Counted from the stretch's first letter, positions 4,911-37,704 are shown. The stretch: DNA of 64,000 nt from Burkholderiales bacterium (GCA_019744975.1 JAIETP010000020.1:83307-147306), one strand, 5' to 3'. Numbers and translations are program-made. The notes: generated from the letters alone by a model not told the origin.

Positions 4911-4986
4911 GCGCTGACTACTTTCCCAAAAACATGACGGCTTCGCCAGAGGCATGTTTTGTCATTATTCATGAAACTTTCAATAA
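4911..4986 (-). repeat. Structured intergenic repeat, copy B (76 bp)
   Basis: Minus strand matches 37627-37704 at 57 of 66 core columns; starts immediately after the receiver-gene stop. Confidence 0.85.
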
Positions 4987-5421
4987 CTACACCGGCGGCG
5001 GCACGCCGAGCAGTGCGCGTACCTTGTCCATCAATTCACGCGTGGAAAAAGGCTTGGTCAGGTAGGCGTCGGCACCCAGCGCCATGCCGCGGGCGATCTC
5101 GGCTTCGCGGCCGCGGGCGGTGACCAGCATGATGCGGGTGCCACGCAATGCTGGATTTTCTCTGATCAGCCGGCATAACTCGAAACCATCAATCAGCGGC
5201 AACATTACGTCCAGGAGTGCCAGGTCGGGCGGCCGGGCCTGCAGCGCGCGCAGCGCCGCAGCGCCATCGCGGGCTGTGGTCACTGCGTAACCTTCCTTGG
5301 CGAGCAGGAATTCCAGCGACAGCAGGATGCTTTCCTCATCCTCGACGATCAGCACGCTGGTGACAGGGGCGCTTTTGGGTAAACCGTTTTTGGGTAAATC
5401 GTCTTTGGGTAAATTATTCAT
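4987..5421 (-). CDS. Stand-alone response regulator (receiver domain only)
   Basis: VLIVEDE, LLDVMLP (phospho-Asp), VTARG, YLTKPF; ATG 5421 overlaps the kinase TGA (ATGA). Confidence 0.9.
   Translation of the reverse strand: MNNLPKDDLPKNGLPKSAPVTSVLIVEDEESILLSLEFLLAKEGYAVTTARDGAAALRALQARPPDLALLDVMLPLIDGFELCRLIRENPALRGTRIMLVTARGREAEIARGMALGADAYLTKPFSTRELMDKVRALLGVPPPV
5374..5413. repeat. Three direct repeats of TTTGGGTAAA with 15-bp period (encode LPKxx x3)
   Basis: Units at 5374, 5389 and 5404 read directly from the sequence. Confidence 0.8.
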
Positions 5422-8168
5422 GCGGCGAGGAAACTGGTGCTGCTGCGTGGCAACGGCAGGGTGAAGGAGAACTTTGCGCCCAGGCCAGACGTGCTTTCCA
5501 CCCACAGCCGGCCGCCGAAGTGATGAATGATTTCGCGCGAAATCGCAAGGCCGAGGCCGCTGCCGCGCGGTTTTCCGGCCGCGGTGTCACTGACCTGGCG
5601 GAATTTTTCGAAAATGACCGCCTGGTCGGCGGGGCTGATGCCGATACCGTTGTCGGCAATGTCGATGCGCAGCGCCGCCTCCTCTTCCGACAGCGTAATG
5701 CTGACGCGGCTGTCGGGTTTGTCGCAGAAGTTGGCCGCGTTGGACAGCAGGTTCAGCGCGACCTGGGTGATGCGGTCGCGGTCGGCCATGACCAGGGGCG
5801 GGTGTTCCGGGATCCGCAGTTCGAGCGCAATGTTCCGTTCCTTGTAGATCTGGCTGAGCGCGGCAACCGCGTCTTCCAATACTTCGCGCATGTCGACTTC
5901 GCTGGGATGCCAGTCGGCGGCGCCGGACTCGATCTTGGCCAGATCCAGCACCTGGTTGATCAGTCTTGTCAGGCGTTCGGATTCGCGGGTGATGATGCCG
6001 AGGAATTTGCTGCGTTGTTGCGGATCAAGCTGGGGGTTGTCACTGAGAATTTCTGAGAACGCGCGGATCGAGGTCAGCGGTGTGCGCAGCTCGTGGGTCA
6101 CCGTCGAGATGAAATCGTCCTTCAGCCGGTCGAGTTCCTGCAGCCGCTGGTTGGCGCCGCGCAGTTCATTGGTGGCGGCTTCGAGTTCGCGTGATTTCTG
6201 TTCCAGCTGCCGGCTGTAGGCGAGCGCCTGCGAGGCCTCGTCGATGATGGCCATCACCTCATCAAGCGCCAGCGGTTCCTCGACCACGACCGAGGCCACC
6301 ATGTCGCGGGCGGATGCGCTGCCGATGGCACCGGCGATCTGCGACTCGACATAGTGCACCAGCACGGCATTGGCGGAGACCTGCTCGATGCCGGGGATAC
6401 CCTGGCTGCGGGCGTAGGCGGCGAAGGCTTCGTTGGCGCGTTCCGGGCCGATAAAGCGACCGAGCAGCGTCTGCAGGTCGGCGACGGTGGCGCTGCCGCG
6501 CCAGAAGCGTGAGCCGCTGCCGGGGGTGATATGACGGAACACGTCGACAAACAGGTTGGCCTGGCTGTGTTCGGCGGCCGTGGGCCGGCGCCACAGGGAG
6601 AAATCGACGTAACAGCCGACATTGGCAATCATGCTCCAGAACAGGCAATGACTGATGTCATCAAGGCCTTCGAGCCCGAACAGTTGCTGCGGTTTGAGCA
6701 AGTCAAAACCCAGGATGCCTTCAGTGAGGAAGGTAATCGGCAGCCAGCCCGATTTGGCGAAGGAGGGCAGCAGCAGCGAATACAGCCAGACCAGGAAACC
6801 CGCGCTGAGTCCGCAAAGGGCGCCCAGCCGGGTGCCGCCTTTCCAGAACAGGCCGCCGATCATTGCCGGTGCGAACTGGGCGACGGCGGTGAATGAAATC
6901 AGGCCGATCGACACCAGTGCGTAGGCTTCTCCGGCAAGGTAGAAGTAACCGTAGCCCAGCACCAGCACCAGGACAATCGCGCTGCGGCGGATGCCCAGAA
7001 GCAGGCCGGAGAGATCGCGACTTTCGGTCAGCCGCAGGAATTTCCAACGGAGCAGGATCGGCATCACCAGGTCGTTGCAGACCATGGTCGACAGCGCGAT
7101 GGTTTCGACGATGACCATGCCGGTCGCCGCCGACAGGCCGCCGACAAAGGCCAGCAGTGCCAGCCAGGTTTTCTGCTCCGACATCGGCAGCGTCAGCACA
7201 AAGGTATCGGCATCAACGGTGCCGGCCGGGAAGTGCATCAGTCCGCCGAGCGCGATCGGCAGCACAAAAATATTGATCGCGAACAGGTACAGCGGAAACA
7301 GCCAGATCGCCTTGTTCAGGTGGCGCTCGTTGACGTTTTCGACGACAGAAACCTGGAATTGGCGTGGCAGCAGGATGATCGCCAGCATCGACAGCACTGT
7401 CAGCGACGCCCATGTTGTGTAGTTGCCGGCGGCGCCGCCCTGGACCAGCAATGCGTTCAATTCGGGTACTGCCGCGGCCTTGGCGAACACGTCGGCAAAA
7501 CCGTCGAACATGCCCCAGGTCACGAACACGCCAACGGCGATGAAGGCGACCAGTTTGACGATGGATTCAAAAGCAATGACGGCGACCAGGCCTTCGTGGC
7601 GCTCAGTGGCATCGAGGTGCCGGGTGCCGAACAGAATGGTGAACGCCGCCAGCAACATCGCAATGTAAAAGGTGTTGTCCTGGAGGAAAGGCAGCGAGGC
7701 GGTGGAGGCAATGACGTTCGGGTACTGCAGCATGGTCGAAAAACTGGCCGAGATCGCTTTCAGCTGCAAGGCGATGTAGGGCACGATGCCCAGTACGGCA
7801 ATGATGGTGACCAGACCGCCCAGCAGATGGCTTTTGCCGTATCGCGAGGCGATGAAGTCGGCAATGGAGGTGATACGGTGTGCCTTGCTGATGCGGATCA
7901 TTTTCAGCAGCACGTACCACCATAACGCGGCCATCAGCGTTGGTCCGAGGTAGATCGGTAGAAAGCCGATGCCGCTGGTCGCCGCGCGGCCGACGCTGCC
8001 GTAGAAGGTCCAGGACGTGCAATACACCGCCAGCGACAGCGTGTAGATGTACGGATTGGCGATGATGCTGCGCCCGGCATCGGCACGTTTGTCGCCGTAA
8101 TAGGCGATGGCGAACAGCAGGCCGACGTAAGCGAAGGACAGAACAACGATCAGCGCACCGGAAAGCAT
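5418..8168 (-). CDS. CrbS/CbrA-like sensor kinase: SLC5 (Na+/solute symporter) domain + STAC + HisKA + HATPase
   Basis: About 500-aa multi-TM N-terminus (YTLSLAVYCTSWTFYGSVG), STAC-like IAGAIGSASAR, H-box VTHELRTPLTSI, G boxes DNGIG and GSGLGL. Confidence 0.9.
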   Translation of the reverse strand: MLSGALIVVLSFAYVGLLFAIAYYGDKRADAGRSIIANPYIYTLSLAVYCTSWTFYGSVGRAATSGIGFLPIYLGPTLMAALWWYVLLKMIRISKAHRITSIADFIASRYGKSHLLGGLVTIIAVLGIVPYIALQLKAISASFSTMLQYPNVIASTASLPFLQDNTFYIAMLLAAFTILFGTRHLDATERHEGLVAVIAFESIVKLVAFIAVGVFVTWGMFDGFADVFAKAAAVPELNALLVQGGAAGNYTTWASLTVLSMLAIILLPRQFQVSVVENVNERHLNKAIWLFPLYLFAINIFVLPIALGGLMHFPAGTVDADTFVLTLPMSEQKTWLALLAFVGGLSAATGMVIVETIALSTMVCNDLVMPILLRWKFLRLTESRDLSGLLLGIRRSAIVLVLVLGYGYFYLAGEAYALVSIGLISFTAVAQFAPAMIGGLFWKGGTRLGALCGLSAGFLVWLYSLLLPSFAKSGWLPITFLTEGILGFDLLKPQQLFGLEGLDDISHCLFWSMIANVGCYVDFSLWRRPTAAEHSQANLFVDVFRHITPGSGSRFWRGSATVADLQTLLGRFIGPERANEAFAAYARSQGIPGIEQVSANAVLVHYVESQIAGAIGSASARDMVASVVVEEPLALDEVMAIIDEASQALAYSRQLEQKSRELEAATNELRGANQRLQELDRLKDDFISTVTHELRTPLTSIRAFSEILSDNPQLDPQQRSKFLGIITRESERLTRLINQVLDLAKIESGAADWHPSEVDMREVLEDAVAALSQIYKERNIALELRIPEHPPLVMADRDRITQVALNLLSNAANFCDKPDSRVSITLSEEEAALRIDIADNGIGISPADQAVIFEKFRQVSDTAAGKPRGSGLGLAISREIIHHFGGRLWVESTSGLGAKFSFTLPLPRSSTSFLAA

Positions 8169-8172
8169 GATC

Positions 8173-8373
8173 CTAACGATCCTTGCGTTCGATGATCAGG
8201 GCCATCAAGGCGATGATGGCCATCCACGCGGCAAACACGTAGATATAAATCAGCGGTATTCCCCAGATGCGTGTGTTGCCGGTAAACAGTGCCAGCAGCG
8301 GAAAGTTGAACAGCAGGCAGCCGAGCAGGAACAACGCCACCAGGCGTTGTCCTTTGAGGGTGGGGCCGGTCAC
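8173..8373 (-). CDS. Small two-TM membrane protein of the kind found before SLC5 kinases/transporters
   Basis: 66 aa, two hydrophobic stretches, IWGIPLIYIYVFAAW motif; 4 bp upstream of the kinase. Confidence 0.8.
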   Translation of the reverse strand: MTGPTLKGQRLVALFLLGCLLFNFPLLALFTGNTRIWGIPLIYIYVFAAWMAIIALMALIIERKDR

Positions 8374-8412
8374 GATGTGTCAGTGCGGGCGGCGGTCGTC
8401 CGTACGGGCGGC

Positions 8413-10398
8413 TTATTTCGGGGTTTGTTTGAGCTGGTCAAGGATCGCCGGATTTTCCAGTGTCGACACATCCTGCACGATGTCCTCGCCCTTGGCGATC
8501 GAGCGCAGCAGCCGGCGCATGATTTTGCCGGAGCGGGTCTTCGGCAGGTTGTCGCCGAAGCGGATGTCCCGGGGTTTGGCGATGGGGCCGATTTCCTTGC
8601 CCACCCAGTCCTGCAGTTCCTTGATGATTTTTTTTGCGGCATCCCCTTCAGGGCGCGCCTGTTTCAGCACAACAAAGGCGACCACGGCCTCGCCGGTAAG
8701 CTCATCGGGGCGGCCGACCACGGCCGCTTCGGCAACCAGCGCGCTATTGGCGACCAGCGCCGATTCGATTTCCATGGTGCCGAGACGGTGGCCGGAGACG
8801 TTCAATACGTCATCGATACGACCCATGATGCGGATGTAGCCGTCCTCATCATAGGTTGCACCGTCTCCAGCCAGATAGTACTTGCCCTGGAAATCCTCCG
8901 GGAAATAGGTTTTTTTGAAACGCTCCGGGTCGCCCCAGATCGTGCGCAGCATTGACGGCCAGGGTTTTTTGATGACCAGGATGCCGCCTTTGCCCTTGCC
9001 CACGGAATGTCCGGTTTCATCGACGATGTCGGCAATGATGCCGGGCAGCGGCAGGGTGGCTGAACCCGGTTTGGTCGGTGTTGCGCCGGGCAGCGGGGTG
9101 ATCATGTGGCCCCCCGTTTCAGTCTGCCACCAGGTATCGACAATGGGGCAGCGGGTGCCGCCGACGGTTTCGTGATACCACATCCAGGCTTCGGGATTGA
9201 TCGGCTCGCCGACGGTGCCGAGGATGCGCAGGCTCGTCAGATCGTATTTTTTCGGCAGGTCGCCGCCGGCCTTGATCAGTGAACGAATCGCGGTCGGTGC
9301 GGTGTAGAACACCGTGACTTTGTGATCCTGGATCATTTTCCAGAACCGTCCGGCATCCGGCCAGGTCGGCACCCCTTCAAAAACGACTTCGGTGCCGCCG
9401 CAGGCCAGCGGACCGTAACAGACATAGGAATGGCCTGTGACCCAGCCCACATCAGCGGTGCACCAGAATACGTCGGTCGGTTTGTGGTCAAAGGTCCACT
9501 TCATCGTCAGGATGGTCCACAGCAGGTATCCGCCGGTGGAATGCTGGATGCCCTTGGGTTTGCCGGTGGAACCGGAGGTGTAGAGAATGAACAGCGGATG
9601 TTCAGCGTCGACCCATTCCGGTTCGCAGGCATCCGGCTGGCCTTTGACCAGGTCATGCAGCCAGACATCGATTTTTGCGTTCCAGTTGACCTTGCCGCCG
9701 GTGCGTTGGTAGACCACGACCGACTTGATTGATTCGCAGCCGCCGAGGGCGATGCCGTCATCAACCGCAGTCTTCAGCGCAATCGCCTTGCCGCCGCGCA
9801 TCTGTTCGTCGGCGGTCAGTACGGCCACAGCGCCGGCGTCGATGATGCGTTCCTGCAGGCTTTTTGCCGAAAAGCCGCCGAACACCACCGAGTGTATGGC
9901 GCCGATGCGCGCGCAGGCCTGCATGGCGACAATCGCTTCGATCGACATCGGCATGTAGATGATGACGCGATCGCCTTTTTTGATGCCGCGTGACTTGAGG
10001 CCGTTGGCCAGCATGCAGGTCCGGCGGTGGAGGTCGTGGTAGCTGGCCCTGGTGATTTTGCCGTCATCGGCCTCGAAAATGACCGCGGTTTTGTCGGGCT
10101 GCGTCTGCAGATGCCGGTCGAGGCAGTTGTACGACGCGTTCAACGTGCCGTCGGCGAACCAGCGGAAAAACGGCGCCTTGGAACCGTCGAAGGTCTGGGT
10201 GAACGGTTTTTTCCAAAGCAGGTGTTTGCGTGCCAGATCGGCCCAGAAGCCGGTGTAGTCCTTTTCGGCGGCGGCGCACATCGCGCGGTAGGCGTCCATG
10301 CCGGAAATGTTCGCCTGAGCGACCAGTTTTGCATCCGGCGGAAACACGCGGGTTTCATGCAGGACTGATTCAATGGTTCCGGATGCTGGGGTGGACAT
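8413..10398 (-). CDS. acs: Acetyl-CoA synthetase
   Basis: [34 protein letters not shown] (acetylatable Lys); GGAGG RBS. Confidence 0.97.
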
Positions 10399-10644
10399 GA
10401 CGCTCCTCCGATGGCTGTTATTCCGATGGTAATTGGTGCGGTCGATTGTGATCGGGTTGGATCGGGTGTGATCGCAGTATCAATGACGGCGCAGCCGCCA
10501 GTTGGCACAAGGTTTCCGACAGATCGTCTCGACGCAGCTGTTTATGCGCTATAAAATCATTAACGCCCCTGTCTTGTAAAGCCGCCGCGGCCCCGAGGCC
10601 GTGGCGTTTCCCGGGATTCGCGGGCATACTTACGACTTTCTTAC

Positions 10645-10740
10645 GGCGGGCCTCCCCGCATCGCATGGTAGTGAACCTGGTCAGGTCCGGAAGGAAGCAG
10701 CCACAGCTATTTAATGCGAGTGCCGGGGGTTAGGCTCGCC
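10645..10740 (+). ncRNA. ffs: Signal recognition particle 4.5S RNA
   Basis: Conserved core TCAGGTCCGGAAGGAAGCAGC; 5' GGCGGGCCT pairs with 3' AGGCTCGCC; upstream of dnaX. Confidence 0.92.
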
Positions 10741-10751
10741 ACCCCAATTCC

Positions 10752-10783
10752 AAAAAAACGGACGGCGTGGCCGTCCGTTTTTT
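10752..10783. terminator. Bidirectional intrinsic terminator after ffs
   Basis: AAAAAAACGGACGGC-GTG-GCCGTCCGTTTTTT perfect hairpin with A/T tracts on both sides. Confidence 0.9.
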
Positions 10784-10958
10784 GTTTTTTGTCAATAACA
10801 AGACAAGCGGTGCGCCGCGCAGGTTTTGCCGGCGGCGTCTGCAGGACTGTTTCCGCTGACCGCTTGCGTCCGCGCTTCTGGCTGGCGGCTTTGCCGGTAA
10901 AATAACGGTCTTGGCTGATTTTTCTTTTTCCTGCTTTCCCTAGTTAACGCGAGCCGCC

Positions 10959-12521
10959 GTGACCCAGGTTCTTGCCCGCAAGTGGCGCCCCCGCAGCTTT
11001 ACCGAACTGGTCGGCCAGGAGCACGTGGTGCGCGCGCTGACCAATGCGCTGCGCCAGCAGCGGCTGCACCATGCCTACCTGTTCACCGGTACCCGCGGTG
11101 TCGGCAAGACCACACTGGCGCGCATCCTGGCGAAGTCGCTGAATTGCGAAACCGGCGTTACCGACACGCCCTGCGGCAAATGTGCGGCCTGCACGGAAAT
11201 CGATGCTGGCCGTTTTGTCGATCTGATCGAACTCGACGCCGCGTCCAACACCCAAGTCGACAATATGCGCGAATTGCTGGAAAACGCGCTGTATGCGCCG
11301 ACCAGCGGGCGCTACAAGGTGTACATCATCGACGAAGTGCACATGTTGTCGCGCTCCGCGTTCAACGCCATGCTGAAAACGCTGGAAGAGCCGCCGGGCC
11401 ATGTGAAATTCATCCTCGCCACCACCGATCCGCAGAAAATTCCGGTGACGGTGCTGTCGCGTTGCCTGCAGTTCGGTCTGAAACAGATTCCGCAGCCGCA
11501 GATCCGCGAGCGCCTGGCGGAAATCCTTGCCGCGGAAAACGTGCCGGCGGATTCGCAGTCGATCGCGCTGGTGGCGCGCGCCGCCGAAGGCAGCCTGCGT
11601 GACGCGCTGAGCCTGCTCGATCAGGCGATTGCCCATGGCGGCGGCAAACTGGACGAGGCTTCGACGCGCGCGATGCTGGGCGCGGTGGACCAGACCTATC
11701 TCTACGTGATACTCAAGGCATTGGCCGAACGCGACGGCGCGGAACTGGTGGCCGGTGCCGAACGCATGGCCGAGCGCAGCCTGTCCTTCGAGTCGGCGCT
11801 GCAGGATCTGGCGTCGCTGCTGCACCGGGTGGCGCTGGCGCAGGTGGTGCCGCAAAGTATCGCCGCGGATGATCCGGACGCAGCGGCCATACTCGAATTG
11901 TCCAAAACCCTGGCTGCCGAAGACCTGCAACTGTATTACCAGATTGCCGTGCAGGGGCGGGCCGAGATCGGCCTGGCGCCGGACGAACATGCCGGTTTCA
12001 TGATGACGCTGTTGCGCATGCTGGCTTTTGCGCCGGGCGCTGTCGCGGCAAGCAGCGCTGCCGTGACCATGGCGCCGGCGAAGACTCCGGCTGTTGCAGC
12101 GACTGCGTCCACCGCAAGGCCGGCGGCGTCCGCGGTCAGGGCCGATCCTTCGTCCTGGGTGGAGCTGGTCGGGCAACTGGGCCTCAGCGCGATGGCCAAC
12201 CAGCTGGCGCTGCGCTGTGAAATGACAAAGCGCACGGCGGAGATGATCGAGCTGCGCATCTCGCCGGCGGACGAACGCATGTTCGATAAAACCTACCGTG
12301 ACAGATTGACCGCAGCGCTGCGCCAGTTGCTGGGCGCGCAGCTGCGGGTGACTTTCCTGGCCGGCGAAGTGGCGGGTGTGTCGCCCAAGGCGATGACCGA
12401 CCGCAAGACCGAGCAGCGGCAGGCGGCGGCCGTCGCCGAAATCCGCGAGGATCCCTTTGTCCTTGAACTGCTGGAGGATTTCGGCGGCTCGGTCGAGGAT
12501 GCTTCCATCAAACCAAAGTAA
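10959..12521 (+). CDS. dnaX: DNA polymerase III subunit gamma/tau
   Basis: LARKWRP, GTRGVGKT Walker A, zinc module PCGKCAAC, DEVHML, SRC motif. Confidence 0.97.
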   Translation: MTQVLARKWRPRSFTELVGQEHVVRALTNALRQQRLHHAYLFTGTRGVGKTTLARILAKSLNCETGVTDTPCGKCAACTEIDAGRFVDLIELDAASNTQVDNMRELLENALYAPTSGRYKVYIIDEVHMLSRSAFNAMLKTLEEPPGHVKFILATTDPQKIPVTVLSRCLQFGLKQIPQPQIRERLAEILAAENVPADSQSIALVARAAEGSLRDALSLLDQAIAHGGGKLDEASTRAMLGAVDQTYLYVILKALAERDGAELVAGAERMAERSLSFESALQDLASLLHRVALAQVVPQSIAADDPDAAAILELSKTLAAEDLQLYYQIAVQGRAEIGLAPDEHAGFMMTLLRMLAFAPGAVAASSAAVTMAPAKTPAVAATASTARPAASAVRADPSSWVELVGQLGLSAMANQLALRCEMTKRTAEMIELRISPADERMFDKTYRDRLTAALRQLLGAQLRVTFLAGEVAGVSPKAMTDRKTEQRQAAAVAEIREDPFVLELLEDFGGSVEDASIKPK

Positions 12522-12539
12522 ACAGAAAAGGTTGTCATC

Positions 12540-12866
12540 ATGATGAAAGGTCAGCTCGCGGGATTGATGAAACAGGCGCAGCAGATGCAGGACAACATGC
12601 GCAAGATGCAGGAGCAGCTCGCACTGATCGAGGTTGAGGGGCAGGCGGGGTCGGGTGCGGTCAAGGTGGTCATGACCTGCAAACATGAGGTCAAGCGCGT
12701 CGCCATCGACCCGTCGGTCATCGGCGATGACAAGGACATGCTTGAGGACCTGATCGCGTTGGCCATGAATGACGCCGTGCGCAAGGTCGAAGCCACCAGC
12801 CAGGAAAAAATGGCCGGAGTGACCGCCGGGCTGCCCTTGCCGCCGGGCATGAAGCTGCCATTTTGA
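12540..12866 (+). CDS. ybaB: YbaB/EbfC nucleoid-associated protein
   Basis: MKQAQQMQ...[11 protein letters not shown]...[12 protein letters not shown]; located between dnaX and recR. Confidence 0.93.
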
Positions 12867-12881
12867 TTTGTTAAATTATAT

Positions 12882-12900
12882 AATAAAATCAAATACTTAT
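12882..12900 (+). repeat. Dispersed AT-rich IHF-like motif, copy 2 (AATAAAATCAAATACTTAT)
   Basis: Exact WATCAANNNNTTR match; 19/19 identical to copy at 51128. Confidence 0.78.
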
Positions 12901-12914
12901 ATTAAACTCCTATT

Positions 12915-13517
12915 GTGAATTCACCGCCATCGCTGCAAGCCCTGATTGATGCGCTGCGCTGCCTGCCCGGTGTCGGGCCGCGTTCGGCGCAGCGCATGGC
13001 CTTCCACCTGATGCAGCGTGACAGGCAGGGTGCTGAGCGTCTGGCCGTAACCATGGGCGCGGCGCTGCAGCGGGTGCGCCATTGCGAACGCTGCAACAAT
13101 TTTTCCGAGGAACCGGTGTGCCAGTTGTGCCTGTCGCCGCGGCGCAACAGCCGGTTGTTATGCGTCGTCGAAACACCGGGCGACCTGCTGATGATGGAGC
13201 AGGCGCAGTGCCATGACGGACTGTATTTTGTGCTGATGGGCGCCTTGTCGCCGCTGGACGGCATCGGGCCGAAAGACATCCACCTCGAACGCCTGTTGCA
13301 GCGCGCCGCCGATGGCGTGGTGCAGGAAGTGGTGCTGGCCACCAATTTTACGGTGGAGGGCGAGGCCACTGCGCACTATGCCGGCGAACTGCTGCGTGCC
13401 AAAGGTGTCAAGGTCACGCGTATCGCGCGCGGTCTTCCGGTCGGCGGCGAACTCGAGCATGTCGACAGCGGCACGCTGGCGCAGGCGGTGCAGGAACGAC
13501 GCGACGTGCTGGGTTAG
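12915..13517 (+). CDS. recR: Recombination mediator RecR
   Basis: [13 protein letters not shown] HhH, C4 zinc finger, Toprim EVVLATN. Confidence 0.96.
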
Positions 13518-13540
13518 CGCAGGCAGGTCGGAATAAGACG

Positions 13541-15796: not shown

Positions 15797-15806
15797 GATG
15801 TTCCCC

Positions 15807-17132: not shown

Positions 17133-17313
17133 TTTTATTCTCCCTTGCCTGCCCCTAAGCTTCGGAGAGGGGGCGGCAAATTTATAGGCTCTGTATACTG
17201 CGAAATTCAGGAATCAGCATACACCAAACCATGAAATCAACAAGATCAGCTCGTGAGTTATCACAAAGATTACCCAGGAAACCCGCCCAAGCGGGGCCGG
17301 GATCGGTTGGCGC

Positions 17314-18303: not shown

Positions 18304-19132
18304 GTAATTCCGGGAATGCGCGTTCGACGCGTGCCCGGTTATGCCCGACTTCAAGCACCAGCCAGCCCTGCGGCGTGAGATGCGCCGCTGCTTCCGCCAG
18401 GATGCGGCGCACGAGATCCAGGCCATCAGTGCCGCCGTGCAGCGCCAGCGCCGGCTCCTTGCGATATTCCGCAGGCAATGTCCGCATCACCGGCTCGCGT
18501 ACGTAAGGTGGATTGCTCAGGATCAGGTCGTAACGTCTGCCGGCGAGGCTGGTGAACAGGTCGGAGCGGATCAGTTGCAGGCGCTGCGTCAGCCGGTGTT
18601 CGCGCACATTGCGCCGTGCTACGGCAAGCGCCGGACTGGAGATGTCGACGCCATCGACCTGTGCACGCGGGAAGGTATGCGCGGCAACGATGGCAAGGCA
18701 GCCAGAGCCGGTGCACAAATCCAGGATTGTTTGCGGCGACTGACGTGGTTTCAGCCACGGTTGCAAACGCGACTGCAGCAGTTCGGCGATGTACGAGCGC
18801 GGCACGATGACACGTTCATCGACATAGAAGCGGTATTCGCCGAGCCAGGCTTCGTGCGTCAGGTAGGCGGCGGGAATACGTTCGCTGATGCGGCGCGCGA
18901 ACAGCTGTTGCGCGCGTCGCGCGATGTTTGCGGGCAGAGGCTGGTCGAGTCGTGCGGCGAGGTCTTCAAACGGACAACCCAGCGCATGCACCATCAGCCA
19001 GGCGGCTTCATCATCAGCGTTGAGCGTGCCGTGGCCGTAGGCGAGGCGGGCGCTGCGAAAATGTCTGGCGGCTTCGGCGATCAGTTGCCGCGGGGTGTTT
19101 GGCGGTGCGGTGGGTGTTGACGCGCGGGACAC
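18164..19132 (-). CDS. prmB: 50S ribosomal protein L3 N5-glutamine methyltransferase
   Basis: YGHGTLNADDEAAWL, FYVDERVIVPRSYIAE, LDLCTGSGC, NPPY. Confidence 0.93.
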   Translation of the reverse strand: MSRASTPTAPPNTPRQLIAEAARHFRSARLAYGHGTLNADDEAAWLMVHALGCPFEDLAARLDQPLPANIARRAQQLFARRISERIPAAYLTHEAWLGEYRFYVDERVIVPRSYIAELLQSRLQPWLKPRQSPQTILDLCTGSGCLAIVAAHTFPRAQVDGVDISSPALAVARRNVREHRLTQRLQLIRSDLFTSLAGRRYDLILSNPPYVREPVMRTLPAEYRKEPALALHGGTDGLDLVRRILAEAAAHLTPQGWLVLEVGHNRARVERAFPELPMIWAETSGGDDCVLLLQRAALAALPSAPAPKPRPAVVRRRRTPAQ

Positions 19133-19139
19133 TTAAAAT

Positions 19140-19161
19140 ATCAATAAAAACAAATACTTAT
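19140..19161 (+). repeat. Dispersed AT-rich IHF-like motif, copy 3 (ATCAATAAAAACAAATACTTAT)
   Basis: 21/22 identical to copy 1; in the pilU-prmB spacer. Confidence 0.78.
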
Positions 19162-19198
19162 GTGCAATTCAGGCGTTTTGCTTATTCAGCCTGCTTAT

Positions 19199-22525: not shown

Positions 22526-22536
22526 CTCGAATTCCG

Positions 22537-26607: not shown

Positions 26608-26622
26608 GGAGCTGACCCCTTC

Positions 26623-29765
<3,143 letters not shown>

Positions 29766-29779
29766 CCGGAGCGCAAGCA

Positions 29780-30670
29780 GTGAAAGGATTTCCGTTGAAA
29801 CGCATATCCATCCGCAAGGCGGTGTTTCCGGTGGCCGGACTGGGCACCCGTTTTTTGCCGGCAACCAAGGCCAGTCCGAAAGAGATGTTGCCTGTCGTCG
29901 ACAAACCGCTGATCCAATACGCGGTGGAAGAGGCGATTGTGGCCGGGGTGACCGAGCTGATTTTTGTCACCGGCCGTGGCAAACGCGCGATCGAGGACCA
30001 TTTCGACCAGGCGGTCGAGCTGGAAATGGCGCTGGAACAGAATGGCCGGACCCAATTGCTGGCGGAAGTGCGTGCAATATTGCCCCGCAACGTCAATTGT
30101 TTATTCGTGCGCCAGGCGCAGCCGCTGGGGCTGGGCCATGCGGTGCTGTGTGCGTGGCCTGCCGTAGGCAACGAACCGTTTGCGGTGTTGCTGGCCGATG
30201 ACCTGATCGATGCGCACAAGCCGGTGCTGGCGCAGATGGAGCGCCTGCACCGGACGAATGGCGCCTCGGTGATTGCCGTGCAGCAGGTGCCCAAAGCGGA
30301 AATTTCCCGCTATGGCGTGGTTGCAGTGCCGCCGCGTTCGCGTTCGCCGCATCAGATCAGCGGCATTGTCGAAAAACCGCCGGCAGCGAAGGCGCCGTCT
30401 CGTCTGGGGGTGGTCGGGCGTTATATCCTGACGCCACGCATATTCACCGAGTTGTCCGGTTCCAGGGCTGGTGCCGGCGGCGAAATCCAGTTGACCGATG
30501 CCATTGCGCGACTGCAACGCCGTGAAACCGTGCTGGCCTATGAATTCGAAGGCCGTCGTTATGACTGCGGCAGCAAGCTCGGTTATCTGGAGGCGAACGT
30601 GGAATTGGCAAAAAAACATCCGGAAATCGGCGCGGCGTTCAGACGTTATCTGCGGCGCTTGCCGGCCTGA
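29780..30670 (+). CDS. galU: UTP-glucose-1-phosphate uridylyltransferase
   Basis: [43 protein letters not shown]; start may be TTG 29795. Confidence 0.95.
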
Positions 30671-30693
30671 GCGGGGCGTCGCGGTCGTCCGGA

Positions 30694-30699
30694 TATAAT
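30694..30699 (+). promoter_or_regulatory. Perfect sigma70 -10 hexamer (TATAAT) upstream of the dsrE-like operon
   Basis: TATAAT about 45 bp before ATG 30744 in a GC-rich spacer; no clear -35. Confidence 0.4.
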
Positions 30700-30743
30700 C
30701 AGCGGCCGGCATTTCGCACTGAATTTTTCAGTCAGGGTATTAC

Positions 30744-31112
30744 ATGGCAAGCAAACTGATGATCATCATGGTCAATACCGACCCGTCCAATGTGCCGGAA
30801 CTGGGTGCGCCGTTTTTCCAGGCCACGGTGGCGGCTGCGATGGATTACGAAGTCGAGGTGATCCTGACCGCACGAGCCGGAGAACTGGCGAAAAAGGGCG
30901 TCGCCGAAAAATTGTTTGTCACCAAAGACGCGCCGAAGAGTGTTTATGATTACATCAAGGATGCGCATGAGGCGGGTGTGCGGTTCAAGGTCTGCACCCC
31001 GACACTGGAATTGTGGGGTGACGACCTGATTCCGGAGATTGATGAAATCATCGGCGGTGCCTATGTGATCGAGCAGGCCATGGACGACGATGTCGTCACC
31101 TTCACTTATTGA
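30744..31112 (+). CDS. DsrE/DsrF-like family protein
   Basis: 122 aa, GAPFFQATVAAAMDYEVEVILT, single Cys in FKVCTP, ends TFTY. Confidence 0.75.
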   Translation: MASKLMIIMVNTDPSNVPELGAPFFQATVAAAMDYEVEVILTARAGELAKKGVAEKLFVTKDAPKSVYDYIKDAHEAGVRFKVCTPTLELWGDDLIPEIDEIIGGAYVIEQAMDDDVVTFTY

Positions 31113-31692
31113 TGCCCGGCCTTTGCAATCTTCACCCGCTGAAGCCAGGGCCTTGCTGGCACGCGCCGAACAACTGCTTGCCCCGGACGCGGTCGAACAG
31201 GCGGTGGCGCGCGTCGCCGGTGAAATTACAACTGCGCTGGGTGAGGCGCAGCCGCTGCTGCTGGCGGTGATGCGCGGCGGCGTGGTGTTCGCCGGGCAGC
31301 TGCTGCCGTTGTTGCGATTTCCGCTGGATTTTGATTATGTTGATGTCACGCGTTACGGCGACGCCACACATGGTGGCGAACTGGACTGGCGCGTGGATGT
31401 GCCGGCGGCGGTGCGGGATCGCACGGTGCTGGTGGTGGATGACATCCTGGACGAAGGACATACGCTGGCGGCGATCCGCCGCCGGCTGCTGGACGCTGGA
31501 GCACGGCGGGTGCTGATCGCGGTGTTTGCGGACAAACAACTGCCTCGTCCCAAACCGGTGGCGGCTGATTTTGCCGGGGTGCAGGTGCCGGATCGTTATG
31601 TGTTCGGATTCGGCATGGATGTGCGCGGCCTGTGGCGCAACCTGCCCGCGGTGTATGCCCTGAACCGTGACGACCAATCGCCCCGGGGCTGA
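31090..31692 (+). CDS. hpt: Hypoxanthine-guanine phosphoribosyltransferase
   Basis: VLVVDDILDEGHTL PRPP motif, VPDRYVFGFGMD; start uncertain. Confidence 0.88.
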   Translation: MSSPSLIDARPLQSSPAEARALLARAEQLLAPDAVEQAVARVAGEITTALGEAQPLLLAVMRGGVVFAGQLLPLLRFPLDFDYVDVTRYGDATHGGELDWRVDVPAAVRDRTVLVVDDILDEGHTLAAIRRRLLDAGARRVLIAVFADKQLPRPKPVAADFAGVQVPDRYVFGFGMDVRGLWRNLPAVYALNRDDQSPRG

Positions 31693-31702
31693 ACGCACCA
31701 AC

Positions 31703-32449
31703 ATGATTGGCATCATCGGCGGCAGCGGACTGAACCGGATCGCGGAATTAGTGACTCCGCGGCGGGTGGTGATGGCTACGCCTTATGGCGAACCCTCGGC
31801 TGCACTGACGGTCGGCAGCCTGCATGGCGTGGAGGTGGTGTTCCTGGCCCGTCATGGTGATGGCCACACCATCGCGCCGCACCGGATCAATTACCGGGCC
31901 AATATCTGGGCCTTGCATGCGCAGGGTGTGCGCGAGGTCATCGCGGTGACAACAGTCGGTGGCATTCGTGAAGGCCTCGATCCGGGGGCGCTGGTGGCGC
32001 CGGACCAGATCATCGACTACACCCATGGCCGGGAAAGCACGTTTTTTGACGGGGTTGCGCAACCGCTGCAGCACATTGATTTCACGCGACCCTTCCACGG
32101 CCCGATGCGCAGCCGCCTGCTGCAGGCCGGCGCCGCTGCGGGTGAAGTGCTGCGCGACGGCGGTGTTTACGGGGCGACGCAGGGGCCGCGCCTGGAAACC
32201 GCCGCGGAAATAGAGCGCATGGCACGGGACGGTGCCGATGTCGTCGGCATGACCGGCATGCCGGAGGCGGCGCTGGCGCGCGAGATCGGGATTGATTACG
32301 CGATGCTGTGTGTGGTGGTCAACGCGGCGGCCGGGCGCGGCAGCAATATTGAAGGTGTGGCGATGGCCGAAATCACCGCGGTGGCGGAAGCGGCGATGCG
32401 GCGTGTCGCCATCATTCTTGGCGGCGTGGCGCAACGTTATGGCCGTTAG
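31703..32449 (+). CDS. S-methyl-5'-thioinosine/thioadenosine phosphorylase (PNP/MTAP family)
   Basis: [43 protein letters not shown]; start revised to 31703. Confidence 0.88.
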
Positions 32450-32972
32450 ACCCGTACTGCGCATGGGTGATGAACGCCTGCTGCGGATCTCGCAGCCGGT
32501 GCAGCGTTTTGACACGCCGGAGCTGCATGCGCTGATCGCCGACATGCAGGACACCATGCAGGCGCTGAACGGCGCGGGACTGGCTGCGCCGCAGATCGGT
32601 GTGCCGCTGCGCGTGGTCATTTTCGGCATTGAAGCCAACCCGCGTTACCCGGATGCCGAGCCCGTGCCGCAGACGGTGCTGATCAACCCGGTGATCACGC
32701 CTTTGGACGCGGCAATGGAAGAGGGTTGGGAAGGCTGCCTGTCGGTGCCCGGCATGCGCGGGCTGGTGCCGCGTTACCTGCGCCTGCGTTACCAGGGCTG
32801 CGATGCCCGTGGTGCCGTGATTGACCGCACGGTGGAAAATTTTCATGCGCGCGTGGTGCAGCACGAATGCGACCATCTCGACGGCGTGTTGTACCCGATG
32901 CGCATCCTTGACCTGCGTAATTTCGGCTTTACTGAAGAGTTGTTTCCAGGGCAGAAAATCGAGGACGACTGA
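32439..32972 (+). CDS. def: Peptide deformylase
   Basis: [27 protein letters not shown]; start revised to 32439. Confidence 0.95.
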
Positions 32973-33002
32973 GCGAGGACGACTGAGCGAAAACGACTGA
33001 GC
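32961..33002 (+). repeat. Tandem 14-bp repeat x3 (GAGGACGACTGAGC x2, GAAAACGACTGAGC) spanning the def stop
   Basis: Read directly; units at 32961, 32975 and 32989. Confidence 0.85.
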
Positions 33003-33075
33003 CGGAACAACCGGGAGCGGGCGACCGGGGCCGAAGCCTGTACCCGCGGTTTTTGTTTGCAGTTTGCGCCGCCGT

Positions 33076-35667
33076 TCAGATCCGCAACTGGTCGAGCAGT
33101 TCGCTTTCGAAACGTACCGTGGTTTTCGGATTGCCCAACGCCGCACCACTGACGACGAAAGTATCTTCGGCACGGGCGCCCAGAGTGTTGATTTTCGCCG
33201 CATGCAGATTGATGTCAAAGGCGGTCAGCGTGCGCGAGATCCGCGACAGCAGGCCGGGGCGGTCGCCGGCGACGATGGACAGCATGCGGTAAGCACCGCG
33301 CTCATCCGACTGGATGGAAACTTCCGGCGTAATCGGGAAATGCCGCAGTTGCCGGCTCAGTCGCGGCTTGGTCAGCGGTGGCAGTGGTGCCTTGCTGGTC
33401 AGGCGGTCGGTCAGTTCGTATTCGATATAGCTGATCAGGTCGCGGTATTCCGGCTGCCGGTTGGACGCATCCTGGATCTGGAAGGTATCGAGCGCGTAGC
33501 CATGACGTGTGGTGTGGATCTTGGCTTCAAAAATGTCGAAGCTGATGCCTTCGAAAAAACTGCAGATCCGCGAAAACAGTTCCTTCTGGTCGGTGACATA
33601 GACCAGCACCTGCAGGCCTTCGCCGACCGGTGACAGGCGTGCCTTGACCACCGGCACGGCAGAATTGACGCGGTGATGCAGATGGCGGGTGTGCCAGGCG
33701 ATCTCCTGTGCTTCATGTCGCAGGAAATAAGCCGTATCGAGTTGTTTCCAGAATTCCCGGTAGTCCGCCTCCGGGATCGCGTACAGGCGCAGCCGCACCA
33801 TCGCATCTTCCTGGCGACCGCGCTGGCCGTCCTGGCGTCCGCTGCGTTCACCGGTGAGCATGCGCCGGGTGGTGTGAAACAGGTCCTCGAGCAGTTTGGC
33901 TTTCCATGCATTCCATACCTTGGGACTGGTGCCGCGGATATCGGCAACGGTCAGCAGGTAGAGTGCGATCAGGTGCCGCTCGTCGCCGACGCGCTGCACG
34001 AAACTGCGCAAAACCTCGGGGTCGCTCAGATCCTGTTTTTGCGCGGTAGCCGACATGACGAGATGCTGTTCCACCAGCCAGGCCACCAGATCGGCATCGA
34101 CCTGTGACAGGCCGTGGGTTTTGCAGAAGCGCAGGGCATCGACCTTGCCGAGGTCGGAATGGTCGCCGCCGCGTCCTTTGGCGATGTCGTGAAACAGTCC
34201 TGCAAGGTAGAGCAGTTCGGGTTTGTCGAATTCGCTCATCAAACGGCTGCACAGAGGGAATTCGTGGGCCAGCTCCGGCACTGCGAAACGGCGGAGGTTG
34301 CGCACCACCTTGAGGATGTGTTCATCCACCGTATAGACATGGTAGAGGTCATGCTGCATCTGGCCGGTGACGCGGCCGAACGCGGGGATGTAGCGGCCGA
34401 GAATGTCGAACTGGTGCATGCGCCGCAGTTCGCGTACCACTCGCGTCGGACTGCGCAGGATGTCCATGAACAGTGCCTGCATGTGCGGGTCGCGACGTGC
34501 CGCCGGATTGATGTTCCGACGTGCACGCCACAGCGCACGCATGGTTACCGCGCCGATGCCCTTGATGCCATGGTGCTGCTGCAGCAATGAAAACACCTCT
34601 AGTATAGAACGGGGGTCGCGTTCGAATATGGTCGGGTCCGGTGCGGACAGCAGTTCGCCGCGGATCACGAAGCGTGGATTGAGCGGTGTGACCACCGAGC
34701 GGTTGGCGGGCGGGGCGATGCGCAGCGCCAGGTTCTGCAGCAGGATGGTGTTGAGCAGGTATACCGATTTTGCCGTCAGGTAATAACGCTGCATCAGGCG
34801 TTCGCTGGCGCGCCGGTTGGCACGGGTGGCGAAGCCGAGTTGTTTGGCAAGCGCAGTCTGGTGATCGAACAGCAGACGGTCTTCGTGGCGCCCGGCCAGG
34901 TAATGCAGATGGATGCGCAGCAGCTCCAGCAATCGTTCGTGGCGGCTGATGGCGCGGGCTTCGTCGCGGGTAATGAAGCCGCGCCGGGCCAGTTCCAGCC
35001 AGGTCCGGCCCAGACCTGCGGCGCGGGAAATCCACAAGATGGTGTTCAGGTCACGCAGGCCGCCGGCGCTTTCCTTGAGATTTGGTTCAAGGTTGGTCTC
35101 CTGGTGCCGGGAATGCCGCTCCTGCTGTTCGATGCGTTTGGCGCTGAGGAAGGCCACCGGATCGATCGATTGCCGCACCTTGCGCGTGAAGCGCCGGTAC
35201 AGGTCGCGGTTGCCGGTGAGCAGCCGGGACTCAAGCAGATTGGTCTGAACGGTTATGTCGCCGGACGCGATCTCGAAACATTCCTCCAGCGTACGCACGC
35301 TGTGTCCGACATCCAGCCCGATGTCCCAGAAGGCGCCGATCAGCGCCTCGAGTTTTTCGCGCAGCGCGGTGTCCGGGGCGGCCGGCAACAGGATCAGGAT
35401 GTCGACATCGGAGTGGGGAAACAGCTGGCCGCGGCCGTAACCGCCAACGGCGATCAAGGCAAGTTGGTCCGGCATCTGGTGTGATTTCCACGCCAGACGC
35501 AGATGACGGTCTGTCAGCAGCGTCAGGCGACGCAGCAGTTCGTGCCTCAGTTTTCCCGCTTCGAACTGTTTTTGCAGTGCCGCGCGGTCTCCCGCCAGTG
35601 CCGCCCGCTGGCTGTCTTGCGGGCTTGCGCGCGGCGCGCGGGTCGGGGCTTCCTGGGCTTTGCTCAT
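33076..35667 (-). CDS. glnD: [Protein-PII] uridylyltransferase
   Basis: AVGGYGRG...SDVDIL, EPNLKESAGGLRD, HD domain (HDIAKGRGGDHS), ACT domains; start revised to 35667. Confidence 0.96.
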   Translation of the reverse strand: MSKAQEAPTRAPRASPQDSQRAALAGDRAALQKQFEAGKLRHELLRRLTLLTDRHLRLAWKSHQMPDQLALIAVGGYGRGQLFPHSDVDILILLPAAPDTALREKLEALIGAFWDIGLDVGHSVRTLEECFEIASGDITVQTNLLESRLLTGNRDLYRRFTRKVRQSIDPVAFLSAKRIEQQERHSRHQETNLEPNLKESAGGLRDLNTILWISRAAGLGRTWLELARRGFITRDEARAISRHERLLELLRIHLHYLAGRHEDRLLFDHQTALAKQLGFATRANRRASERLMQRYYLTAKSVYLLNTILLQNLALRIAPPANRSVVTPLNPRFVIRGELLSAPDPTIFERDPRSILEVFSLLQQHHGIKGIGAVTMRALWRARRNINPAARRDPHMQALFMDILRSPTRVVRELRRMHQFDILGRYIPAFGRVTGQMQHDLYHVYTVDEHILKVVRNLRRFAVPELAHEFPLCSRLMSEFDKPELLYLAGLFHDIAKGRGGDHSDLGKVDALRFCKTHGLSQVDADLVAWLVEQHLVMSATAQKQDLSDPEVLRSFVQRVGDERHLIALYLLTVADIRGTSPKVWNAWKAKLLEDLFHTTRRMLTGERSGRQDGQRGRQEDAMVRLRLYAIPEADYREFWKQLDTAYFLRHEAQEIAWHTRHLHHRVNSAVPVVKARLSPVGEGLQVLVYVTDQKELFSRICSFFEGISFDIFEAKIHTTRHGYALDTFQIQDASNRQPEYRDLISYIEYELTDRLTSKAPLPPLTKPRLSRQLRHFPITPEVSIQSDERGAYRMLSIVAGDRPGLLSRISRTLTAFDINLHAAKINTLGARAEDTFVVSGAALGNPKTTVRFESELLDQLRI

Positions 35668-35699
35668 GCGAGAGCGGCGATTGTTCTTGTTACCCGTGT

Positions 35700-36491
35700 T
35701 CAGGCGGGCGGTGCGGGGGTCGCGGCGGACATGGTCAGCACTTCGTAGCCGCGGTCGGTGACCAGCACGGTGTGCTCCCACTGTGCCGACAGGCTGTGAT
35801 CCTTGGTGACGATGGTCCAGCCGTCGGCCAGTTGACGGATGTCCGCGCGGCCGGCATTGATCATCGGTTCGACGGTGAAAATCATCCCGGCTTCCAGACG
35901 CATGCCCATGCCGGGTCTGCCGTAATGCAGGATCTGCGGCTCTTCATGGAAATTGAGGCCGATGCCATGGCCGCAGAATTCGCGGACCACGCTGCAGCCG
36001 TTTTTTTCGGCATGGACCTGTATCGCGTGACCGATGTCGCCCAGGGTATTGCCGGGCCGCACGGCGCGGATGCCGCGCCACATGCACTCGTAAGTCAGGT
36101 CGATCAGCCGGCGCGCCTGGATCGAAGGCGGTCCGACACAGAACATGCGGCTGGTATCGCCGTGGAAACCATCCTTGATGACCGTGATGTCGACATTGAT
36201 GATGTCGCCGTTTTTGAGTTTTTTTTCACCCGGGACGCCGTGGCAGACCACATGATTGACAGAAGTGCAGATTGATTTCGGGTACGGCGTGTAACCCGGC
36301 GGGGTGTAATTCAGCGGCGCCGGTATCGTGCCTTGTACATTCACCATGTAATCGTGACAGAGGCGGTCGAGTTCGCCGGTGGTGATGCCGGCTTTGATGT
36401 GCGGGGTGATGAAGTCGAGCACTTCGGCGGCGAGCCGGCCGGCGACCCGCATCCCCTCGATTTGCTGCGGATTCTTGAGATTTACGGGCAT
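35700..36491 (-). CDS. map: Methionine aminopeptidase type I
   Basis: SICTSVNHVVCHG, GHGIG..FHEEP, FTVEPMIN, SAQWEHT. Confidence 0.97.
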   Translation of the reverse strand: MPVNLKNPQQIEGMRVAGRLAAEVLDFITPHIKAGITTGELDRLCHDYMVNVQGTIPAPLNYTPPGYTPYPKSICTSVNHVVCHGVPGEKKLKNGDIINVDITVIKDGFHGDTSRMFCVGPPSIQARRLIDLTYECMWRGIRAVRPGNTLGDIGHAIQVHAEKNGCSVVREFCGHGIGLNFHEEPQILHYGRPGMGMRLEAGMIFTVEPMINAGRADIRQLADGWTIVTKDHSLSAQWEHTVLVTDRGYEVLTMSAATPAPPA

Positions 36492-36673
36492 GACAGCGTT
36501 TTTGAGGCGCGCCGCACGGCAGCGCAGGTAAGGGATGTTGCTTGGTTGTTACTTGAGGGGGCGATTCTAACAGGTTGTAACCATTCAAAAAATTCGGGTT
36601 TTGCCATGGCAAAAGGTATTTTTGTGGCCATGGTCCGGGCACTGTACATGGCTTGAGGGAAAATGGCTTTGCG

Positions 36674-36826
36674 TGTTAAAATAAGGAGTTAGCTTGGTTC
36701 TTTGGCTTCACATTTTGTGTGGCCGGACCCGGCAACAACCCCACACACCTGTCGACGTTAAGGGTGCCCGGATTTCCGGGTGGCAATGGACAGGTGGCGG
36801 ACCAACCCTAACTGGAGAATTGCAAC
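36674..36826 (+). promoter_or_regulatory. rpsB extended -10 promoter (TGTTAAAAT) and 5' leader (putative S2 autoregulatory RNA)
   Basis: TG-n-TAAAAT at 36674-36682; leader with CACACACCTGTCGAC...GACAGGTG complementarity and GGGTG motif. Confidence 0.45.
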
Positions 36827-37579
36827 ATGTCAGTCACCATGCGCGAAATGCTTGAGGCCGGCGTACATTTCGGCCATCAAACGCGTTACTGGAATCCGAA
36901 AATGGCACCTTACATTTTCGGTCACCGCAACAAGATCCACATCGTCAATCTTGAAAAGACGATGGTTCTCTACCACGATGCGCTGAAGTTCGTGCGCCAG
37001 CTGTCTTCGAACAAGGGCAGCATCCTGTTCGTCGGCACCAAACGCCAGGCCCGCGAGATCGTTCGCGAAGAAGCCCAGCGTTGCGGCTCCCCCTACGTTG
37101 ACTACCGCTGGCTCGGCGGCATGTTGACCAACTACAAAACGGTCAAGGGTTCGATCCAGCGCCTGAAGGACATGCTGGCCATGCGCGAAGACGGCTCGTT
37201 CGAGAAGCTGTCGAAGAAGGAAGGCCTGCAGTATGAGCGCGAAATCGCCAAACTTGAGCGCAGTCTGGGCGGCATCAAGGACATGAGCAGCCTGCCGGAT
37301 GCGCTGTTCGTGATTGACGTCGGTTACCAGAAGGGTGCGATTACCGAGGCGAAAAAACTCGGCATCCCCGTCATCGGCGTCGTCGACACCAACCACTCAC
37401 CGGACGGCGTGGATTACGTGATTCCGGGCAACGATGACTCGAACCGCGCGATCAAGCTCTACGCACGCGGCATGGCGGACGCCGTTCTTGAAGGCCGCAG
37501 CACCAGCATTCAGGAGATTGTCAAAGGTGGCTCCGACGAATTCGTCGAGGTCGATGACGGCGAAACAGCCGCAGCCTGA
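36827..37579 (+). CDS. rpsB: 30S ribosomal protein S2
   Basis: [34 protein letters not shown]. Confidence 0.98.
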
Positions 37580-37599
37580 TCCGGCTCCACGACACATTC

Positions 37600-37624
37600 A
37601 AGGGGCGTACAGCCCCTTTTTTTT
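37600..37624 (+). terminator. Intrinsic terminator/attenuator between rpsB and tsf
   Basis: AAGGGGC-GTACA-GCCCCTT followed by a T run. Confidence 0.8.
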
Positions 37625-37626
37625 AA

Positions 37627-37704
37627 TTATTGAAAACTCCATAAATAATGACAAAAACAAGCCTCTAGCGAGGCTGTCATGTTTTTGGGAAAACTCAATA
37701 GCGC
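37627..37704 (+). repeat. Structured intergenic repeat, copy A (78 bp)
   Basis: 57/66 core identity to the minus strand of 4911-4986; contains AGCCTC-TAGC-GAGGCT hairpin flanked by ATGAC/GTCAT. Confidence 0.85.

Follow-up and report, generated by a model that had tools for sequence, protein, structure and literature searches.

A 73-nt TA-flanked repeat of one uncultured Burkholderiales genus: a probable family of non-autonomous DNA transposons with a well-conserved central hairpin

The two copies in the window and the anatomy of the repeat

The stretch of DNA analysed here, in the following called the window, comprises 64,000 nt from a Burkholderiales bacterium (GCA_019744975.1, JAIETP010000020.1:83307-147306). 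It contains two copies of a 73-nt intergenic repeat, which probably belongs to a family of miniature transposable elements with inverted repeats (MITEs). Copy B, at 37628..37700 on the plus strand, occupies the spacer between rpsB (ribosomal protein S2, 36827..37579, plus strand) and tsf (EF-Ts, 37721..38632, plus strand). According to the alignment and to filled and empty orthologous sites it is an intact 73-nt element. Copy A, at 4914..4985 on the minus strand, is located upstream of an open reading frame (ORF) for a luciferase-like monooxygenase and begins 1 nt past the TAG stop codon (4987-4989) of an ORF for a CheY-like response regulator (4987..5505, minus strand). Both copies, their positions on opposite strands and their identity at 57 of 66 core columns had been reported in a preliminary description of this DNA and were reproduced by alignment of the minus strand with the plus strand, which refined the ends to the coordinates given above. 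A degenerate pattern of the 49-nt core is expected to occur 0.00 times by chance in a window of 64,000 nt.

The aligned copies yield a 73-nt consensus, TA-TTGAAAATTSCRTAAATAATGAC-AAAAACAT-GCCTC-TGRC-GAGGC-T-GTCATGTTTTTGGAAAAWATCAA-TA, which corresponds to a unit of 69 nt with TA on either side. The element thus consists of the TA, an imperfect terminal inverted repeat of 25 nt (TTGAAAATTCC...ATGAC), a central hairpin of the form GCCTC-N4-GAGGC, the inverted arm and the second TA. That terminal inverted repeats are present follows from the pattern of the 25-nt 5' arm, which also matches the reverse complement of the 3' arms. The termini TATTGA/TCAATA are 77-90% paired over 92 loci. It had been stated before that neither a terminal inverted repeat nor a target site duplication was evident, which was wrong in view of these arms and of the TA found at both ends. 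In copy B the TA ends are located at 37628-29 and 37699-37700, the 5' arm at 37630-37652, the core at 37648-37688, the two strands of the central hairpin at 37661-65 (GCCTC) and 37670-74 (GAGGC), and the 3' arm at 37676-37698, all on the plus strand.

The G+C content of the element is 31%, compared to 60.5% for the genome that holds the window (G000; 3.69 Mb on 44 contigs, 99% complete). The element has no coding capacity, as it comprises only trivial ORFs whose length shifts with the loop base. In four copies the central hairpin is longer (GCCTCTGC-TCGGTTG-GCAGA-TTC-GGC), and one aligned copy is devoid of the centre.

Folded as RNA, each strand of the element gives a single long hairpin, with -22.6 and -19.9 kcal/mol and z values of -6.1 and -4.9, respectively. 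For copy B we obtained -23.2 kcal/mol and z = -4.5. The central GCCTC/GAGGC hairpin had been described together with two overlapping pairings, ATGAC/GTCAT and AAAAACATG/CATGTTTTT. All of these are real, but they are not balanced energetically: the forced AAAAACATG/CATGTTTTT fold reaches only -16.1 kcal/mol, which is 6.5 worse than the ATGAC/GTCAT fold, and the pair probabilities are 0.0002 and 0.999, respectively.

Copy A is an old, decaying insertion. Its A-run is short by one A, one pair of the hairpin is a C.A mismatch, the 3' arm is degenerate (GGGAAAGTAGTCAG), and its fold has a z value of +0.26, i.e. it is no better than shuffled sequence. In the orthologue of copy A in L190 the hairpin is lost.

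Copy number, insertion sites and target preference

Instead of two copies, at least 23 were identified in G000 by BLAST and profile search, distributed over 14 contigs. Among the 25 species of the genus that were sampled, 16 carry the element with 1 to 22 copies each, and the remainder have none. It was not found in any of the 16 other genera of the order Burkholderiales that were sampled. A scan with one genome per prokaryote species revealed more than 112 stretches, and all of these matches are titled uncultured Burkholderiales or Betaproteobacteria bins, or belong to a few bins labelled Bordetella. Plasmid and phage records contained no match to the element. The family occurs only in a single genus of uncultured betaproteobacteria of the order Burkholderiales. 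The pooled set comprises 110 copies at 98 distinct insertion loci from some 35 metagenome-assembled genomes, and six of these loci are common to more than one species. Several G000 copies are 97-100% identical to the consensus, which indicates recent activity.

The history of copy B can be read from the orthologous spacers. At least 10 related species have no insertion in the rpsB-tsf spacer (...CCCCTTTTTTTTAAT-TG-GCGCAAGAGG...), and it is filled only in G000, in its nearest relative G009 and in L131 (...AAT-[TATTGA...CTCAATA]-GCGCAAGAGG...). Copy B is a recent insertion into this spacer which is common to the three close species. The insertion point is 8 nt past the T-run of the native rpsB terminator/attenuator hairpin (AAGGGGCGTACAGCCCC + T8, 37600..37619, plus strand). 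This hairpin lies outside the element in the left flank of the insertion site, is present in every filled and empty orthologous spacer that was read, and appears terminator-like in the scan. Neither the hairpin nor the ribosome-binding site of tsf was altered by the insertion, and the own Shine-Dalgarno sequence (AAGAGGAA) and ATG of tsf are retained in the empty sites.

The 3' arm of copy B contains an ATG at 37679 (GAGGCTGTCATG, with an SD-like GAGG 5 nt upstream; SD, Shine-Dalgarno), which is in frame with tsf. An ORF caller adds 14 residues to EF-Ts by use of this in-element ATG (37679-37723). The true tsf start is at 37721, as the empty sites show. Wherever an in-element ATG shares the frame of the gene that follows, as it does here, the start codon needs to be checked. 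We also considered an N-terminal extension of downstream genes by means of this Shine-Dalgarno-ATG unit and rejected it, as the ATG is an ATA in five leuCD orthologues and L186 carries a frameshift. Over the family an internal ATG is in frame with the downstream gene in 8 of 37 cases, which is about chance level.

Besides rpsB-tsf, five more loci with filled and empty states were identified, and at six loci the length gain equals the element plus 2 bp. At the end of an exbD-like gene (C1:129331) the empty alleles hold the TA of a stop codon (CTAG, TTAA, ATAA). For 78 loci with reliable ends, the position -1 is a pyrimidine (Y) in 92% and the position +1 a purine (R) in 95%, and TA...TA is intact at both ends in 51 of them. 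The resulting flank pattern Y-TA-[element]-TA-R, with symmetric degenerate flanks and an invariant TA, is the outcome expected of a preference for YTAR with duplication of the TA. IS630 and related elements target TA and duplicate it. A duplicated TA target is also described for the RUP and Correia elements (PMC2229807). The TA duplication at a YTAR target is well supported but not proven.

Every copy examined is intergenic, and most copies are found 0-90 nt from a stop codon. Other copies reside in divergent promoter regions and between convergent genes. The target TA is often that of a TAA or TAG stop codon, and an insertion into such a TA adds one extra tyrosine before the stop is rebuilt by TA|TTGA. 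The TGA of the element is the stop codon of the neighbouring gene at 13 of 67 gene-end junctions (...TAT-TGA). The position at gene ends can be explained without any RNA function, because YTAR is scarce at 60% G+C outside of stop codons and AT-rich spots, and because selection acts against gene disruption.

At the site C15:12554-12639 the long-loop variant is present in G000, and a short loop with near-identical arms in L107, L114 and L130. This suggests that gene conversion between copies switched the loop, or that an element inserted again at the same TA. G009, the nearest relative, is empty both here and at the priB-rpsR site, whereas G012, which is more distant, is filled.

Identity of the element and alternative explanations

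Bacterial MITEs are small and non-coding, have inverted ends with a terminal TA, are A+T-rich, duplicate their target and form a long hairpin (Delihas 2008, PMC2229807). The repeat described here is non-coding and shorter than 200 bp, possesses terminal inverted repeats, is A+T-rich, multi-copy and dispersed, and shows insertion polymorphism. We are therefore fairly confident that it represents a TA-targeting family of non-autonomous DNA transposons of one Burkholderiales genus, of which the core has possibly been co-opted. The MITE family is new and of an ordinary kind, with the exception of the central hairpin, which has hardly changed over a very long time at some sites. The earlier idea of an undescribed MITE/REP-like element that entered the rpsB-tsf spacer is borne out by these findings, as the repeat is dispersed and restricted to one genus, has empty sites in relatives and matches nothing in Rfam or in plasmid and phage records.

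The proposed course of an insertion is as follows. A transposase supplied in trans would cut at YTAR and duplicate the TA, like enzymes of the IS630/Tc1-mariner type. Most YTAR sites are expected to fall within TAA/TAG stop codons or within AT-rich spots just behind genes, which would leave the surviving copies at gene ends. The end TA|TTGA would recreate the stop one Tyr codon later, and insertions should thereby be nearly harmless. The family would thus be a clean example of a TA-targeting MITE that lives in a G+C-rich genome by landing in stop codons and rebuilding them.

The Correia repeat-enclosed elements (CREE/NEMIS) of Neisseria are the closest analogue. They share with the 73-nt repeat a betaproteobacterial host, the small size, the lack of coding capacity and the AT-richness, terminal inverted repeats of about 25 nt with 5'-TA-3' ends and, probably, a duplicated TA, dozens of intergenic copies that vary between strains or species, a long hairpin when transcribed, and an outward promoter-like site at the junction, and no transposase is known for either (PMC2229807, PMC2649163, PMC10969869). 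The promoter-like site here is TTGTCA-17-AATAAT on the minus strand of copy B. In contrast to the Correia elements, which are about 107-155 nt long, the repeat comprises 73 nt, and its most conserved part is the central hairpin. The consensus presumably bears no resemblance to the Correia repeat, and we take the likeness to be that of a functional analogue only. The RUP element of Streptococcus pneumoniae also inserts at TA, has short inverted ends and a length of about 100 nt, is intergenic, and serves as the model for an IS630-type enzyme that moves a MITE in trans (PMC2229807). However, the RUP ends match those of the resident IS630-Spn1, whereas the sole IS630-type gene found in 25 species of the genus studied here has unrelated ends.

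Several observations weigh against the assignment to MITEs. The best-conserved part of the repeat is its centre, while in most MITEs the ends are conserved best. Many empty alleles of other species hold TG or CA, which is one transition away from TA, and the case for a duplicated TA is built on length differences between species, a single clean TA case and the symmetry of the Y/R flanks. At three of the shared sites the filled species are not sisters, or the loop variants differ, which requires recombination or repeated insertion. An autonomous partner, that is a related insertion sequence (IS) with matching ends, was not found. G000 contains neither solo ends nor a multi-copy IS, and its self-comparison for multi-copy IS revealed only paralogous genes. 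The search for a partner covered DDE_3, DDE_Tnp_1 and Y1_Tnp in 25 species of the genus, DDE_Tnp_1_2 in 7 species, and two metagenome scans. DDE_3 was present in only one of the 25 species (G022), where an IS630-type gene (L226:1394-2502, contig C303) is bordered by 29-nt inverted repeats (ATTACTCACCGGTCCGTAATATAGGCTAC) that are unrelated to the ends of the 73-nt element. An IS5-family IS on contig C6 of G000 was rejected as partner too, since its ends (TAGGGTCTGT...) match a separate 290-bp repeat instead. The first metagenome scan, for ends joined to non-MITE sequence, gave nothing, and the second one yielded three variant MITEs and one chance hit in an ORF of an organism with 45% G+C. An autonomous IS with matching ends is likewise lacking for Correia elements and for most bacterial MITEs (PMC2229807). 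The repeat therefore poses the same puzzle as the Correia elements, namely recent activity with a missing partner and no visible transposase.

The conservation of the centre could also be understood if the repeat were a REPIN/RAYT-type or IS200/IS605-derived single-strand element, in which an HUH transposase of the Y1 type recognises the central hairpin and not the ends. The centre is indeed better kept than the middles of the arms, compensatory changes are seen in the hairpin, for which there is also a long-loop variant of equivalent structure, and the whole unit forms one long hairpin as REPINs do. With REP and REPIN sequences it further shares the palindromic doublet, the location at gene ends and the multi-copy, lineage-specific occurrence, and G000 encodes four Y1_Tnp genes. 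However, none of these four genes has an element or its words within 1.2 kb, so that a RAYT/IS200-type partner was rejected, and across species the presence of Y1_Tnp does not follow the presence of copies: the gene occurs in the copy-free G010, G019, G021 and G023 and was not found in G012 with its 22 copies. REPs are G+C-rich, do not duplicate TA and flank a RAYT gene, whereas the repeat is AT-rich with true inverted ends and neither flanks the Y1_Tnp genes nor follows their presence. IS200/IS605 elements insert beside a fixed tetra- or pentanucleotide and without duplication. The combination of a fixed adjacent motif, no duplication and no inverted ends is not seen in the 73-nt repeat, and its symmetric Y-TA...TA-R flanks and the gain of 2 bp are not expected from such a mechanism. 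An HUH-type origin is in our opinion quite unlikely.

It is improbable, too, that the repeat is primarily a functional RNA module, i.e. a terminator, a hairpin that stabilises mRNA or is processed by RNase, or a two-state switch, which spread to many transcripts and persists for its RNA function. Such a module would agree with the strong folds on both strands, the short G+C stem followed by a T-run on both strands, the proximity of most copies to a stop codon and the retention of the core inside the leuCD operon transcript. A simple terminator scan indeed finds weak terminator-like sites with a 5-6 bp stem on both strands. Moreover, transcripts of MITEs are known to act in this way, as in the cases of Correia/RNase III, ERIC/RNase E and SPRITE, and other small mobile repeats give rise to transcripts which are terminator-like or change mRNA decay at gene 3' ends (PMC10969869). 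These latter repeats are alike in that respect, but they have no sequence relation to the 73-nt element.

However, the orientation of the unique loci relative to transcription is only weakly biased (38 sense and 23 antisense, p = 0.07). G-U pairs are no more common than A-C mismatches on the transcribed strand, and no strand-specific G-U signal exists over the family. The arms show no compensatory evolution, as own arms form 13.36 and swapped arms 13.34 of 19 pairs. Both sides of both alternative pairings are invariant and hence do not covary, and the two folds, which differ by 6.5 kcal/mol, are far from the near-isoenergetic states of a two-state switch. The copies in divergent promoter regions and between convergent genes do not fit an RNA function, and a terminator within leuC-leuD or right after the native rpsB terminator makes little sense. 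A match to Rfam had been named as a finding that could overturn the earlier description, but no family matched: at the gathering threshold the whole window yielded a signal recognition particle (SRP) RNA alone, and over copy B the best scores at a permissive E-value were 10-18 bits compared to thresholds of 42-80. Inspection by eye gave no convincing match to a sigma-54 promoter, to Fur, Pho, CRP or FNR boxes, to dif or to attC. The data on orientation, mismatches, arms, folding, position and Rfam thus argue that the repeat is not primarily a riboswitch, a two-state switch or an sRNA gene, and the former proposal of an sRNA or switchable cis-regulatory RNA is not upheld. Annotations should treat the copies as a mobile repeat to be masked and should not list them as sRNAs, riboswitches or terminators.

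Finally, the copies might be immobile, fixed binding sites of a host DNA-binding protein, related to an AT-rich, IHF-like motif of the genome. The 3' end of the element (AAAATATCAATAA) equals the first half of that motif (TAAAAATATCAATAAAATCAAATACTTATA), and the core is kept at the level of sequence and not of structure alone. The clean empty sites in relatives, copy numbers from 0 to 22, near-identical copies at unrelated loci and the dissimilarity of the rest of the element to the motif make this explanation hardly credible.

The conserved core and the leuC-leuD copy

The core of the MITE family comprises the positions 21-61 (41 nt; ATGACAAAAACATG-CCTC-N4-GAGG-CTGTCATGTTTTTGG) and is nearly invariant across the sub-families, while the arms differ at up to a third of their positions and the arm middles vary freely. 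The same invariance is seen among the 17 G000 copies of canonical length (70-76 nt), which were found without a core-based filter. There are copies whose arms have decayed around a good core, but none in which the core was lost between well-preserved arms.

Between leuC and leuD, one old insertion is common to eight species (L029-L034, L172, L186). In the 28 species pairs its 41-nt core is 4.2% different, whereas the flanking 600 nt of leuC and leuD are 31% different when compared at third codon positions. The arms are intermediate in their divergence, as judged by eye. A second old locus, which is found upstream of a radical-SAM gene and within a divergent promoter region, is shared by G009 and L147. 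There the core differs at 1 of 41 positions, while about a third of the arm positions are changed and the surrounding 3 kb are 15% diverged. Judged by this divergence, the core is evidently under host-level constraint at some sites. At one pair of the stem the changes are compensatory: the main type has C-G, two species have T.G, one species has T-A, and three copies from peat metagenomes have G-C. Because of these compensatory changes, and because the long-loop variant retains the hairpin with a different sequence, the hairpin matters as a folded structure. It may act as RNA, as single-stranded DNA or as the binding site of a protein.

The leuC-leuD site is empty in G000, where both genes are separated by a 3-nt junction (TGAGCGATG, C27:10030-10040) and the Shine-Dalgarno sequence of leuD, AGGAG, lies inside leuC. 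In the filled species the spacer comprises 69 nt, the Shine-Dalgarno sequence is about 80 nt away from the leuD start codon, and no other one is found within 15 nt of the leuD ATG. In seven of these species leuC stops at CAT-TGA, which derives from the element, and in the eighth, L172, at TAA. In this sub-clade the old copy would have replaced the native 3-nt junction and thereby moved leuD away from its Shine-Dalgarno sequence, and the hairpin may bring the leuD start close to its upstream ribosome-binding site again. In phage T4, hairpins bring the ribosome-binding site and the start of genes 25 and 38 together. Alternatively, a specific protein may bind to the core.

The retention of the core at leuC-leuD and in one divergent promoter region suggests a secondary co-option, in which the core would serve either as a folded hairpin or to bind a protein. 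That the 41-nt centre is a module co-opted by the host, with a functional hairpin or a core-bound protein at leuC-leuD, is a possibility which we put forward only tentatively. If true, a mobile element would spread a ready-made regulatory or structural cassette. The conservation of the leuC-leuD core offers a concrete, testable case of a transposon-derived sequence that becomes necessary to its host.

Other repeats are present in the same genome. The AT-rich motif TAAAAATATCAATAAAATCAAATACTTATA occurs in at least 212 copies genome-wide, three of which are located in the window (2841-2867, 19135-19161 and 51120-51146, all on the plus strand). The 3' end of the 73-nt element is the same sequence as the first 13 nt of the motif. 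Some insertions of the element lie in or beside such motifs, for example at C23:48367, where the empty alleles hold a complete motif. From the sequences, the overlap in AAAATATCAATAA may mean that the ends borrow a host-factor site, or that the AT-rich motifs are favoured targets.

G000 also harbours another MITE family, unrelated to the first and about 290 bp in length, with 19 full and 8 partial copies, none of them in the window; examples are C9:50025-50319 and C5:184993-185267. Its ends (GGGCCTGTTAACCATT...) match at 14 of 16 bases the 18-nt inverted repeats (TAGGGTCTGTACACATTT) of the IS5-family IS mentioned above, which comprises two ORFs (L263:947-1777; G000 C6, about 100.35-101.18 kb) and is likely the autonomous partner of the 290-bp family. 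The only structured RNA matched in the window is the small bacterial SRP RNA, at 10645-10743 on the plus strand (Rfam RF00169, 84.6 bits).

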